Shown piece after piece: positions 1 through 4,429 of a stretch of DNA of 4,429 bases. Position 1 is the first letter of the stretch, and every line of letters begins with the position of its first letter. This stretch comes from a virus. Taxonomy: Duplodnaviria; Heunggongvirae; Uroviricota; Caudoviricetes. Location: IMG/VR virus record IMGVR_UViG_2675903289_000007. The stretch is one strand, 5' to 3'. The position numbers and the translations under genes are program-made. The notes below the pieces were generated by a model, which had not been told where the DNA came from, ran no database searches, and saw nothing but the letters and a program-made list of their open reading frames with translations.

Positions 1-109
1 ACACTAAATCAGTAAGTTGGCAGCATCACCGAAGTGGTAAAGAAGATAATAAAGAATAATATTTAGGGTTATAGGTCTTAGCCCATTTTAAATGGAAGGC
101 AGACATGCA

Positions 110-130
110 GCCATGCATACTTCGCATGGC
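110..130 (-). terminator. Possible weak terminator hairpin downstream of the minus-strand membrane-protein gene
   Basis: Perfect 7-bp inverted repeat GCCATGC (110-116) / GCATGGC (124-130) with a 7-nt loop, about 8 nt after the TAA stop of the minus-strand gene. No clear U-tract follows on the minus strand, so the assignment is tentative. Confidence 0.25.
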
Positions 131-137
131 AACATAA

Positions 138-444
138 TTATTTAGACAAACTATCTAATTTTTGCGTCGCTTTTTGTGTTAGGTCGCTGTAACTGATAAA
201 CCCTACGTTAGCACCTACAATTAACACTAAGAACACTAAGCTGCATATGGATAGAGTGGCAGATTTATGCTTATGGAAAACAAAATATGCTACTATTGCA
301 CTTAATATGAAGGAAATGAATAGAAATATAGATGTTGATGTTTTTAGATATTTTTCAGGAAATAATGGGTGAGCAATAATGTATACAAGATTAAGTAGTA
401 TATAAATTGCTACCGGAATGAAAATCATGCTCCAGTGTGTATCT
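138..444 (-). CDS. Hypothetical membrane protein, C-terminal portion only (about 100 aa visible, three predicted transmembrane helices); upstream part lies in masked sequence, so the true start and length are unknown
   Basis: Stop-free minus-strand frame of 102 codons in markedly AT-rich DNA, where chance open frames are short. Translation shows three hydrophobic helix-length segments (MIFIPVAIYILLNLVYIIAHPLF, SIFLFISFILSAIVAYFVF, LSICSLVFLVLIVGANVGFISY) separated by short charged loops, then a hydrophilic tail. TAA stop at 138-140. The ORF-track extension to 1202 is purely an artefact of reading through N. Confidence 0.5.
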
Positions 445-464
445 NNNNNNNNNNNNNNNNNNNN
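445..464. other. Run of N (masked or unresolved bases)
   Basis: 20 consecutive n characters. Confidence 1.
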
Positions 465-509
465 GGGAGGGATTGGCTGCAAATAATCAGACACCGTTTT
501 TCCATCAGT

Positions 510-1187
510 NNNNNNNNNNNNNNNNNNNNNNNNNNNNNNNNNNNNNNNNNNNNNNNNNNNNNNNNNNNNNNNNNNNNNNNNNNNNNNNNNNNNNNNNNNN
601 NNNNNNNNNNNNNNNNNNNNNNNNNNNNNNNNNNNNNNNNNNNNNNNNNNNNNNNNNNNNNNNNNNNNNNNNNNNNNNNNNNNNNNNNNNNNNNNNNNNN
701 NNNNNNNNNNNNNNNNNNNNNNNNNNNNNNNNNNNNNNNNNNNNNNNNNNNNNNNNNNNNNNNNNNNNNNNNNNNNNNNNNNNNNNNNNNNNNNNNNNNN
801 NNNNNNNNNNNNNNNNNNNNNNNNNNNNNNNNNNNNNNNNNNNNNNNNNNNNNNNNNNNNNNNNNNNNNNNNNNNNNNNNNNNNNNNNNNNNNNNNNNNN
901 NNNNNNNNNNNNNNNNNNNNNNNNNNNNNNNNNNNNNNNNNNNNNNNNNNNNNNNNNNNNNNNNNNNNNNNNNNNNNNNNNNNNNNNNNNNNNNNNNNNN
1001 NNNNNNNNNNNNNNNNNNNNNNNNNNNNNNNNNNNNNNNNNNNNNNNNNNNNNNNNNNNNNNNNNNNNNNNNNNNNNNNNNNNNNNNNNNNNNNNNNNNN
1101 NNNNNNNNNNNNNNNNNNNNNNNNNNNNNNNNNNNNNNNNNNNNNNNNNNNNNNNNNNNNNNNNNNNNNNNNNNNNNNNNNNNNNNN
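510..1187. other. Run of N (masked or unresolved bases), 678 nt
   Basis: Continuous n characters; no biological content can be called here. Confidence 1.
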
Positions 1188-1284
1188 CTTAAATGCGACC
1201 ACAATCTGAACTCATCACCTTGTCACAGATGCAGAAATGCACCTGCGATTTTCTGCATTCTGCGGTTTCCGTTAGGGAGGCCGT

Positions 1285-1740
1285 ATGACTCTGCCAGTAG
1301 ACGGCATCAAACTCCATCGCGGTAACTTCGCGGCCATCGGCCAGCAGATTCAGCCATTGCTGGATGCCGGGCAATGCTTACGCCTGCAGGTTAAGCCGTG
1401 GCGCGAGAAGCGCAGCCTGTCGCAGAACGCGCTCAGCCACATGTGGTACACGGAGATCAGCGAATATCTCATCGCCCGCGGCAAGACCTTCGCTACGCCT
1501 GAGTGGGTCAAAGACGCGATGAAGCACACCTATCTCGGCTACGAAAGCAAAGACCGTGTAGATGTCGTGTCCGGCGAGGTCACCACCGTCCAATCCCTCC
1601 GCCATACGTCAGAGCTGGAAACCGGCGAGATGTACATCTTCCTGTGCAAAGTCGAAGCCTGGGCGATGAATATCGGCTGCCACCTGACAATTCCGCAGAG
1701 CTGTGAATACCAGCAGCTGCGCGATAAGCAGGAGGCGTAA
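1285..1740 (+). CDS. ybcN: YbcN / NinB-family prophage protein (described as a DNA base-flipping protein in DLP12), 151 aa
   Basis: ATG at 1285 preceded by GGGAGG (1273-1278); 151-codon frame. Length, sequence character and position as first gene of the ybcN-ninE-ybcO-rusA-ylcG-Q block match my recollection of the DLP12 nin region. Stop TAA overlaps the next start (TAATG). Confidence 0.8.
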   Translation: MTLPVDGIKLHRGNFAAIGQQIQPLLDAGQCLRLQVKPWREKRSLSQNALSHMWYTEISEYLIARGKTFATPEWVKDAMKHTYLGYESKDRVDVVSGEVTTVQSLRHTSELETGEMYIFLCKVEAWAMNIGCHLTIPQSCEYQQLRDKQEA

Positions 1741-3388: not shown

Positions 3389-4429
3389 TTAATTAGAGTT
3401 ATTAACAACGATATCATCGGTAGCAACGCCAGATGCTTTCGTGAAATCGCTCTTATCAATCAGGTTGATTTTGTAATCAACAAAAGTGGACATATTTTTG
3501 TTGAAGTAATAGGTTGCACCTACATCAATATATTCAACCAGGTCCTGATCACCCCACGCACCCAAGTCTTTTCCTTTAGATTGCAGGTAAGCAACGGACG
3601 GACGCAGACCGAAGTCGAACTGATATTGTGCAACTACTTCGAAGTTTTGTGCTTTGTTGGCAATATGGTTATTACCAAAAACAGTCATGTTCTGGGTTTC
3701 AGAATAGGTGGTAGCCAGATAGATGTTGTTCGCATCATATTTCAGACCAGCTGCCCATACTTCAGCATTTTGACCAGATGCATTCAGGCTGTTGTTACCG
3801 TAGATAACCTGATTATTAGTGCGGTCAGATTTAGCATAGGTTGCACCTACACCGAATCCTTCATACTCATAAGTAGTGGAGAAACCGAAACCATCACCAT
3901 TAGCTTCAGTTACGTCAGTGCGGTCATTTTTACCCTGATACTGAGCAGCAAAGTTCAGACCATCAACCAGACCAAAGAAGTCGTTGTTACGATAAGTTGC
4001 AACACCAGTGGTGCGACCAGTCATGAACACATCTGTTTGAGTCCAAGTGTCACCACCGAATTCTGGCAGGACGTCAGTCCACGCACCGATGTCGTATGCT
4101 ACACCGTAGTTACGGCCGTAATCGATGGAGCCGTAGTCACCGAATTTCAGGCCAGCGAAGGCAAGACGGGTTTTATCTTTGGAGGAACCTTGAGATTCAG
4201 CGCGGTTGCCTTTGAATTCATATTCCCACTGACCGAAACCAGTCAGTTGATCGTTGATTTGGGTTTCACCTTTGAAGCCAAGACGGGCATAAGTAGTATC
4301 ACCATCATCTGCATCATTAGAGGAGAAGTAGTGCTTAGCATTAACTTTCCCGTACAGATCCAGCTTGTTACTGTCTTTATTATAAATTTCAGCTGCCTGA
4401 GCAGACATCGCCATCAGTACTGATGCAGC
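3389..4429 (-). CDS. nmpC: Outer-membrane general porin of the NmpC / OmpD / Lc (phage-borne OmpC-like) family; 5' end beyond the window (signal peptide only partly present); C-terminus aberrant (ends DDIVVNNSN, terminal beta-strand and Phe missing)
   Basis: Frame is open to the window edge upstream of the ORF-track Met (reads ...[12 protein letters not shown] then mature [16 protein letters not shown]...). Throughout, the product carries porin hallmarks ([104 protein letters not shown]). Stop TAA (complement) at 3389-3391. Confidence 0.9.
3406..3415 (-). repeat. Right copy of 10-bp inverted repeat (CAACGATATC on plus strand), at the junction where the porin loses its canonical C-terminus
   Basis: Reverse complement of 3132-3141. 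On the minus strand it encodes the D-I-V of the porin tail, after which the frame reads VNNSN-stop instead of AVGxVYQF. Confidence 0.8.

Follow-up and report, generated by a model that had tools for sequence, protein, structure and literature searches.

The closest described counterparts of the locus analyzed here are two-gene prophage units of the Rex type. In phage lambda, the gene for the soluble protein RexA comes first and that for the small polytopic inner-membrane protein RexB second, the unit is oriented against the lytic early operon, and in the logic proposed for it a cytoplasmic sensor activates a membrane effector. Mycobacteriophage Sbash carries a two-gene prophage defense, gp30/gp31, which is expressed in the lysogen and acts against heterotypic phages; Sbash gp31 has four predicted transmembrane (TM) domains like RexB, and membrane depolarization was proposed for it by analogy with RexAB (PMC6426596). 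For mycobacteriophage Butters, gp30 and gp31 are both reported as components of prophage-mediated defense with hints of mutual interaction, and TM domains are predicted for gp31 and not for gp30 (PMC7542560). Like the pair described below, those of Sbash and Butters each join a membrane protein to a protein for which no TM domains are predicted. Besides these systems, lambda ren and the DLP12 genes emrE, ybcK, ybcL, ybcM and ylcH are relevant by position, as accessory genes that are not needed for phage growth and that lie between the replication and nin modules.

Here we describe a two-gene, AT-rich accessory cassette, B-A, which, in a DLP12-like lambdoid prophage, separates the replication gene P from the nin region and runs antisense to both. 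Part of this prophage makes up the window, by which we mean the whole stretch of 4,429 nucleotides that was analyzed (IMG/VR record IMGVR_UViG_2675903289_000007). The cassette occupies the same slot as ren and the DLP12 genes, but those genes are unrelated to it and are oriented with the early operon, whereas the cassette is antisense and much more AT-rich. With RexA/RexB it shares the organization of a two-gene prophage unit, the order of soluble gene and membrane gene, and the orientation against the early operon. The two units differ in that RexA has 279 amino acids (aa) and a DUF4747 domain, whereas B has 125 aa and no Pfam domain; in that RexB has four TM helices, whereas A has three and a soluble N-terminal part; and in that rexAB adjoin cI, whereas the B-A cassette lies between P and ninB. 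Homology to RexA/RexB was considered and rejected, as profile comparison with hhalign gave a probability of 1.7% for A against RexB and of 0.04% for B against RexA. The Sbash and Butters pairs belong to a different phylum; A has three TM helices against the four of Sbash gp31, and B lacks the DUF4747 domain that Sbash gp30 carries. By analogy, B-A is a plausible non-homologous counterpart of the Rex-type systems. We tentatively read it as a two-component phage-exclusion or abortive-infection module, in which B would be a cytoplasmic sensor and A a membrane effector, and to this reading of the sequences we give somewhat less than an even chance.

Two coupled genes beneath and beside a masked run

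The features of the window are collected in Table 1. Its masked runs do not preserve length: in identical relatives, the runs of 20, 678 and 154 N correspond to 5, 613 and 121 bases, respectively. The first two of these values rule out reading the masked bases on the assumption that the masks are true to length. As references for positions 31-444 we used 46 of 5,426 complete E. coli genomes, comprising 43 that are identical to the window and 3 at 99.8% identity; among them are strains 536, F11, M-17 and A0 34/86. Positions 465-509 were compared with only one of the 46, strain BH100N (locus L001), and match it exactly, and from position 1188 onward the window is collinear with the BH100N record, in which a window position corresponds to the L001 position minus 5970. 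In both BH100N and strain 536, two minus-strand genes are annotated at this site, each as a hypothetical protein.

Table 1. Features of the window, in window coordinates unless marked L001
Feature	Position	Strand	Remarks
IS1 terminal inverted repeat	1-30		Reverse complement of GGTGATGCTGCCAACTTACTGATTTAGTGT
Replication protein P gene, last 29 bases	31-59	+	Left border of the cargo slot; L001 CDS 5316-6029
Terminator-like stem-loop and T-rich tail	66-94	+	Just past the P stop; L001 6036-6054 plus tail; consensus match only
Hairpin	105-135	-	Directly 3' of the A stop; core GCCATGC-gaagtat-GCATGGC
Gene A, visible part	138-509	-	Stop codon 138-140; reading frame intact over 141-444 and 465-509
Masked run	510-1187	-	613 bp in relatives: A codons 1-24, gene B and about 170 bp of upstream noncoding DNA
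31-aa open reading frame, ylcH-like	1193-1288	+	Overlaps the ybcN start; at the position of K-12 ylcH
ybcN (NinB-position gene)	1285-1740	+	First nin-region gene; right border of the cargo slot
ybcN, ninE, ybcO, rusA, ylcG, quuD	from ybcN	+
nmpC/ompC-type porin gene	3389-4414	-	341-aa open reading frame counted from the first ATG

The stretch from 138 to 509 is the 3' three-quarters of a gene encoding a 142-aa inner-membrane protein, A. Residues 42-142 are encoded at 141-443 and residues 25-39 at 465-509, while residues 40 and 41 lie beneath the mask at 445-464. The full length of 142 aa is that found in the 46 reference genomes (WP_000608370.1). A mechanical scan had produced a 354-aa open reading frame, which is an artifact of the N run that it crosses. 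In A, some 45 soluble residues at the N terminus precede three TM helices, and the protein ends in a short amphipathic tail. Hydrophobic segments were found by the Kyte-Doolittle method at residues ~46-66, 79-97 and 104-124, and AlphaFold2 modeled helices at 46-68, 71-100 and 103-141 with a mean pLDDT of 72. The best-conserved stretch of the protein is its soluble N-terminal part. Because KK precedes TM1 and an invariant K-H-K loop connects TM2 and TM3, the positive-inside rule would place both the N-terminal part and the KHK loop in the cytoplasm.

Immediately upstream of A, under the mask, the relatives carry a second gene, B (WP_000182282.1, 125 aa). The stop codon of B overlaps the start codon of A as ATGA, a ribosome-binding site, GGAGGG, lies 5 nucleotides before the ATG of A, and B and A are translationally coupled. 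As both flanks of the masked run are exactly identical to the relatives, residues 1-24 of A and the whole of B are presumably intact in the window's own genome. B has neither a signal peptide nor a TM or hydrophobic segment, and it is therefore presumably cytoplasmic. The structural model of B is poor (pLDDT 55), with an alpha-beta-beta-alpha-beta-beta-alpha order of elements, for which fold searches returned generic alpha/beta matches only.

An earlier note on this DNA, made from the visible letters, had described an AT-rich gene for a protein with a three-helix membrane domain, on the opposite strand and upstream of the nin operon, and had taken it for horizontally acquired prophage cargo (a moron) distinct from the genes of K-12 DLP12. 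Each of these points is borne out by the present analysis. Positions 138-444 have a GC content of 31.9%, against 53.1% from ybcN to ylcG and 50.3% from ybcN to quuD, and genes A and B, taken in full, have 33.6% each against 49 to 57% in their flanks. Gene A is a minus-strand frame located between the 3' end of P and ybcN and antisense to both; it is open in the relatives, with no stop that breaks it. The three helices were recovered by both methods given above. Since ren occupies the equivalent interval in lambda and emrE, ylcJ, ybcK, ybcL, ybcM and ylcH occupy it in K-12 DLP12, the P-to-nin interval is a cargo slot, and the cassette is not K-12 content. The note erred in two respects. It had placed the N-terminal region of the same protein, with any sensor or enzymatic domain, under the mask, but A has only 142 aa with its short soluble part, and the mask hides the separate gene B. 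It had also pointed to the left of the window for partner genes, whereas the partner lies inside the masked run to the right, upstream on the minus strand. Its suggestion of an abortive-infection or exclusion effector stands as a candidate. The correct gene model is two short coupled genes and not one gene with a hidden domain, and the annotation can be amended in this sense whatever the cassette does.

Database searches placed neither protein in a described family. In Pfam, B had no match at E <= 1 and A only subthreshold hydrophobic matches; NCBIfam returned no family for A or B, and PADLOC-DB 2.0.0 (2023, with systems described up to then) no match for either at E <= 1. A matches phrog_16940 over its full length (E = 2.3e-96, residues 1-142 of 142) and B matches phrog_18061 (E = 9.3e-85, residues 1-125 of 125), both of them PHROGs without an annotated function. 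A search of PDB sequences with the B profile gave noise only (E >= 0.036). No characterized protein, which by the earlier note would have told against its reading, was matched in the Pfam, NCBIfam, PADLOC, PHROG or PDB-sequence searches. Rfam showed no RNA family at the locus, and literature searches by protein accession, PHROG identifier and topic returned no description of an A/B cassette.

The shape of A also recalls a lysis protein, as A is of class I holin size, with three TM helices and a charged C-terminal tail. RexAB is moreover reported to help lysogens pass into lytic growth (bioRxiv 10.1101/2021.04.19.439022). On these grounds B-A might serve the phage life cycle, either as a holin-like or lysis-timing protein with its regulator or as a modulator of the lysogeny/lysis switch, as proposed for RexA. 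We regard this as having only a slender chance of being right. Neither A nor B matched a holin family in Pfam or the PHROGs, and prophages of this kind have their own distant lysis cassette (essD, rrrD and rzpD, or holin/lysozyme genes); essD, rrrD and rzpD lie about 4 kb from the B-A cassette, on the other strand. In addition, the cassette is antisense to the early operon, and homologous pairs occur at chromosomal sites without phage genes.

Conservation, mobility and partners of B and A

Between alleles at about 90% amino-acid identity, the dN/dS ratio is 0.07 for A and for B, and between alleles at 66 to 76% identity it is 0.09 for each; purifying selection thus acts on both genes, strongly and to a similar degree. 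Close homologues of A and B (65 to 100% identity) occur only in Enterobacteriaceae, namely E. coli, Shigella sonnei, Enterobacter and Klebsiella. Proteins identical to A and B are present in many fragmentary records of Shigella sonnei. In the prophages of Klebsiella and Enterobacter, the pair keeps its sizes of 125 and 142 aa and its ATGA overlap, while the replication modules around it differ (O/P, DnaB-type or DnaC/IstB-type) and so do the nin-region genes, with DUF1367 replacing ybcN, for example. In these prophages and in 18 IMG/VR viral contigs, the pair always lies between the replication and nin modules and antisense to both. A constant pair within changing modules marks B-A as a self-contained mobile unit in a mosaic background. 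The deviant GC content, the insertion between conserved phage modules and the patchy presence, in 46 of the 5,426 complete E. coli genomes, are those of a moron. The INPHARED phage collection, searched at both the nucleotide and the protein level, yielded no match; prophages and viral contigs are the only places in which the cassette is known. A search with an alignment of close sequences found no relative among 185,579 species-representative genomes.

The bacteria that harbor the cassette, which are uropathogenic, probiotic and animal E. coli as well as Shigella sonnei, would suit a cargo that acts on host fitness, with a membrane protein and its cytoplasmic partner altering envelope physiology (stress tolerance, transport or colonization). 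The slot offers a precedent, since in K-12 it holds a small multidrug transporter gene (emrE) and other host-acting genes (ybcL). We nonetheless think such a role distinctly unlikely, as A and B show no transporter or enzyme signature beyond subthreshold hydrophobic matches, and three TM helices in 142 aa are few for a transporter unless it is oligomeric. The many unrelated phage and islet contexts in other bacteria and the strict pairing suggest instead a self-contained selfish or defensive module.

To characterize the wider family, we searched 1.84 billion representative proteins with the B profile and obtained 109 clusters (50% identity) at E <= 1e-3, whose representatives are nearly all 120 to 135 aa long. 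All 76 relatives that were aligned match phrog_18061. The positions conserved in B include Y10, G39, Q72, F84-x-G86-T87-N88, I99-K100, W107 and D115. The 76 relatives have no consistent Pfam family and no NCBIfam family, and against PADLOC they gave scattered single matches only (E >= 0.002).

We then sampled the contexts of B at 11 loci, which span about 20% to 100% identity and of which nine are distant (about 20 to 37%). An A-like gene lies directly downstream of B in 11 of 11. At the nine distant loci, this partner gene overlaps B or starts within 5 nucleotides of it, and its product has 125 to 155 aa. The A-like partners have a soluble N-terminal part of about 35 to 45 residues with the pattern G...(D/E)(I/L)...G.....(Y/F)(L/I), an invariant W at the start of TM1, three TM helices of which the second and third are joined by a basic loop, and a short polar tail. 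Six of these partners, searched against Pfam, NCBIfam and PADLOC, belonged to no family and showed only subthreshold hydrophobic matches. The presence of an A-like partner in every sampled locus, down to about 20% identity, indicates that the B-A pairing is ancient. B-A constitutes a conserved, mobile two-protein module from families described in no library that we searched.

The B-A loci lie in prophages or in chromosomal islets. Loci L019 and L020 hold the pair at a phage cargo position between early genes and lysis/terminase genes, and in L045 it adjoins a tape-measure-like gene, also at a cargo position. In L008 the site adjoins PIN and DUF4160/DUF2442 genes. L016, from a marine bacterium, has it in an islet after smc-zipA-ligA that also contains an Xre/MbcA-type antitoxin gene. 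Among ten neighbors in two chromosomal contexts, PADLOC recognized no defense gene. The L016 islet (8875-16384) holds at least six further genes without a Pfam or PADLOC match and may be a variable island.

A B domain was also found outside the pair. The metagenomic protein P0105 (447 aa; L011 246-1589) contains a genuine B domain at residues 4-122 (hhalign probability 99%, E = 2.5e-18) fused to an HNH nuclease domain (Pfam E = 1.3e-12, above the Pfam cutoff). This B-HNH fusion is a single metagenomic case, and its 1.7-kb contig carries no membrane partner. The C-terminal region of P0105 that follows the HNH endonuclease domain is uncharacterized. Another short protein, P0013 (127 aa, from an ENA metagenome), joins an N-terminal half of pentapeptide repeats to a segment with 100% identity to the final 50 residues of B, and this chimera is probably an artifact of assembly or rearrangement.

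Several of these observations bear on the main rival to an exclusion module, a toxin-antitoxin or addiction module in which A would be a small membrane-damaging toxin and B its antitoxin, together stabilizing the prophage or islet. Gene order and the 4-bp overlap are typical of type II-like toxin-antitoxin operons, and the PIN and DUF4160/DUF2442 neighbors in L008 and the Xre/MbcA antitoxin gene in L016 are of toxin-antitoxin type. Moreover, in two IMG/VR loci, L024 and L031 (both at 8372-8800), independent 1-bp deletions shift the frame of A so that it ends after 73 and 15 codons, respectively, while B is intact in both, as expected for the loss of a toxic gene. These frameshifts could reflect counterselection of a toxic membrane protein, but they could also be sequencing errors in draft data. 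Neither A nor B matched a type II toxin or antitoxin family in Pfam or NCBIfam, no DNA-binding motif was detected in B, and the stronger ribosome-binding site belongs to A. The B-HNH fusion, furthermore, links B in cis to an effector; antitoxins are not usually arranged in this way. Overall, we consider a toxin-antitoxin function unlikely, while noting that many toxin-antitoxin modules also abort infection.

B-A as a candidate phage-exclusion module

An exclusion module offers, in our tentative judgment, the best account of these features. The evidence for it starts with the structure of the cassette, two minus-strand genes that overlap at ATGA, with A preceded by a strong ribosome-binding site and the GC content of both well below that of the flanks. 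Both genes are real and under selection, the pair moves as a unit, and the pairing of a soluble with a membrane protein is strict and ancient. Its contexts are mobile accessory sites, that is, prophage cargo slots and islets adjoining genes of toxin-antitoxin type, and the slot occupied in the window is a known cargo site (lambda ren; DLP12 emrE, ybcL and ybcM). Finally, functional analogues exist in RexA/RexB and in the gp30/gp31 pairs of Sbash and Butters.

If B-A works in this manner, the cassette would be read from a promoter of its own, probably during lysogeny. B would act as a sensor or regulator through the short, conserved cytoplasmic N-terminal part of A; the choice of this part as the contact site for B fits its being the most conserved stretch of A. 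A trigger from the infecting phage would cause the three-helix part of A to oligomerize and to compromise the membrane, by ion leak or depolarization, and phage growth would stop as a result. The B-HNH fusion fits the idea that B may be a sensing or regulatory module able to drive different toxic effectors.

Other observations weigh against an exclusion module. Apart from the scattered matches given above, A, B, the 76 relatives and the ten neighbors yielded zero PADLOC matches, and no association with defense islands emerged from those ten neighbors in two chromosomal contexts. A and B share no sequence homology with RexA/RexB, their promoter is only weakly assigned, and the HNH fusion is a single case. 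The order of the coupled genes, soluble first and membrane second, fits a toxin-antitoxin pair equally.

Exclusion could also act at the step of phage entry. Entry blockers are frequent among prophage cargo of this kind, and A is a small inner-membrane protein encoded by the prophage on an independent antisense unit. A might then block DNA injection in the manner of T4 Imm or P22 SieA, with B as an accessory or regulatory protein. T4 Imm is not known to need a partner. P22 SieA is likewise reported as the sole phage protein needed for its exclusion (10.1101/2023.08.15.553423). Both differ in this from the pair described here, whose cytoplasmic member is retained at all sampled loci. The family is also found in chromosomal islets that are not prophages, the nuclease-fused variant of B points to an intracellular trigger-and-effector logic, and no annotated exclusion family in Pfam or the PHROGs is similar to A or B. 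We therefore judge an entry block to be quite improbable.

Returning to a sensor-effector module, we consider B-A a reasonable candidate for a new phage-exclusion system. A broader proposal is that B-A founds a new two-component anti-phage family, homologous to none described, in which a cytoplasmic sensor of about 125 aa (phrog_18061) would be combined with interchangeable effectors, usually a small three-TM membrane disruptor and occasionally a fused HNH nuclease. Such a family would be spread by prophages and islets in Gammaproteobacteria at least, and possibly more widely; we hold this proposal to be possible but doubtful.

It is established that new anti-phage systems can be found in prophage cargo slots. 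Should the cassette be one of them, it would be a compact module of about 800 bp made of two proteins of no described family, whose sensor domain can apparently act through a membrane effector or through a nuclease. The cassette would then help to explain differences in phage resistance among strains of E. coli, Shigella sonnei, Enterobacter and Klebsiella, and, as the strains concerned include uropathogenic and probiotic ones, it would be relevant to phage therapy. As a toxin-antitoxin pair or a fitness gene, by contrast, it would be a moron of the ordinary sort.

Putative transcription signals and borders of the cassette

Upstream of B, a TATACT box resembling a -10 element is conserved in E. 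coli/Enterobacter-type alleles, and the Klebsiella-type allele has a TATGAT box at the aligned position. A consensus scan of the minus strand upstream of B found no convincing sigma-70 promoter and no good -35 element.

At the other end of the cassette, the hairpin that follows A may be a 3'-end or terminator structure. The minimum free energy of this region is -23.2 kcal/mol (window 31-145, minus strand; z = -2.8), and no U-tract lies behind the hairpin. Hairpins of other sequence occur at the same position after A in the Enterobacter-type and Klebsiella-type alleles (L025 and L002), an indication of conserved RNA structure at the 3' end, again with no U-tract. On the opposite strand, the putative terminator just past the P stop could end or attenuate rightward early transcription before it enters the antisense cassette. 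Lambda tR2 has a similar position before the nin region.

At the left border, the IS1 end abuts the remnant of P, so that the insertion lies within the last codons of this gene. This IS1/P junction is missing from all 46 complete E. coli genomes that carry the cassette, and the GTDB species representatives contain no exact match to it. At the right border, the short ylcH-like frame is annotated as a hypothetical protein in the relatives. The porin gene farther downstream is slightly longer as annotated in the relatives, and it is uninterrupted in the window, whereas the copy in K-12 DLP12 is split by IS5.
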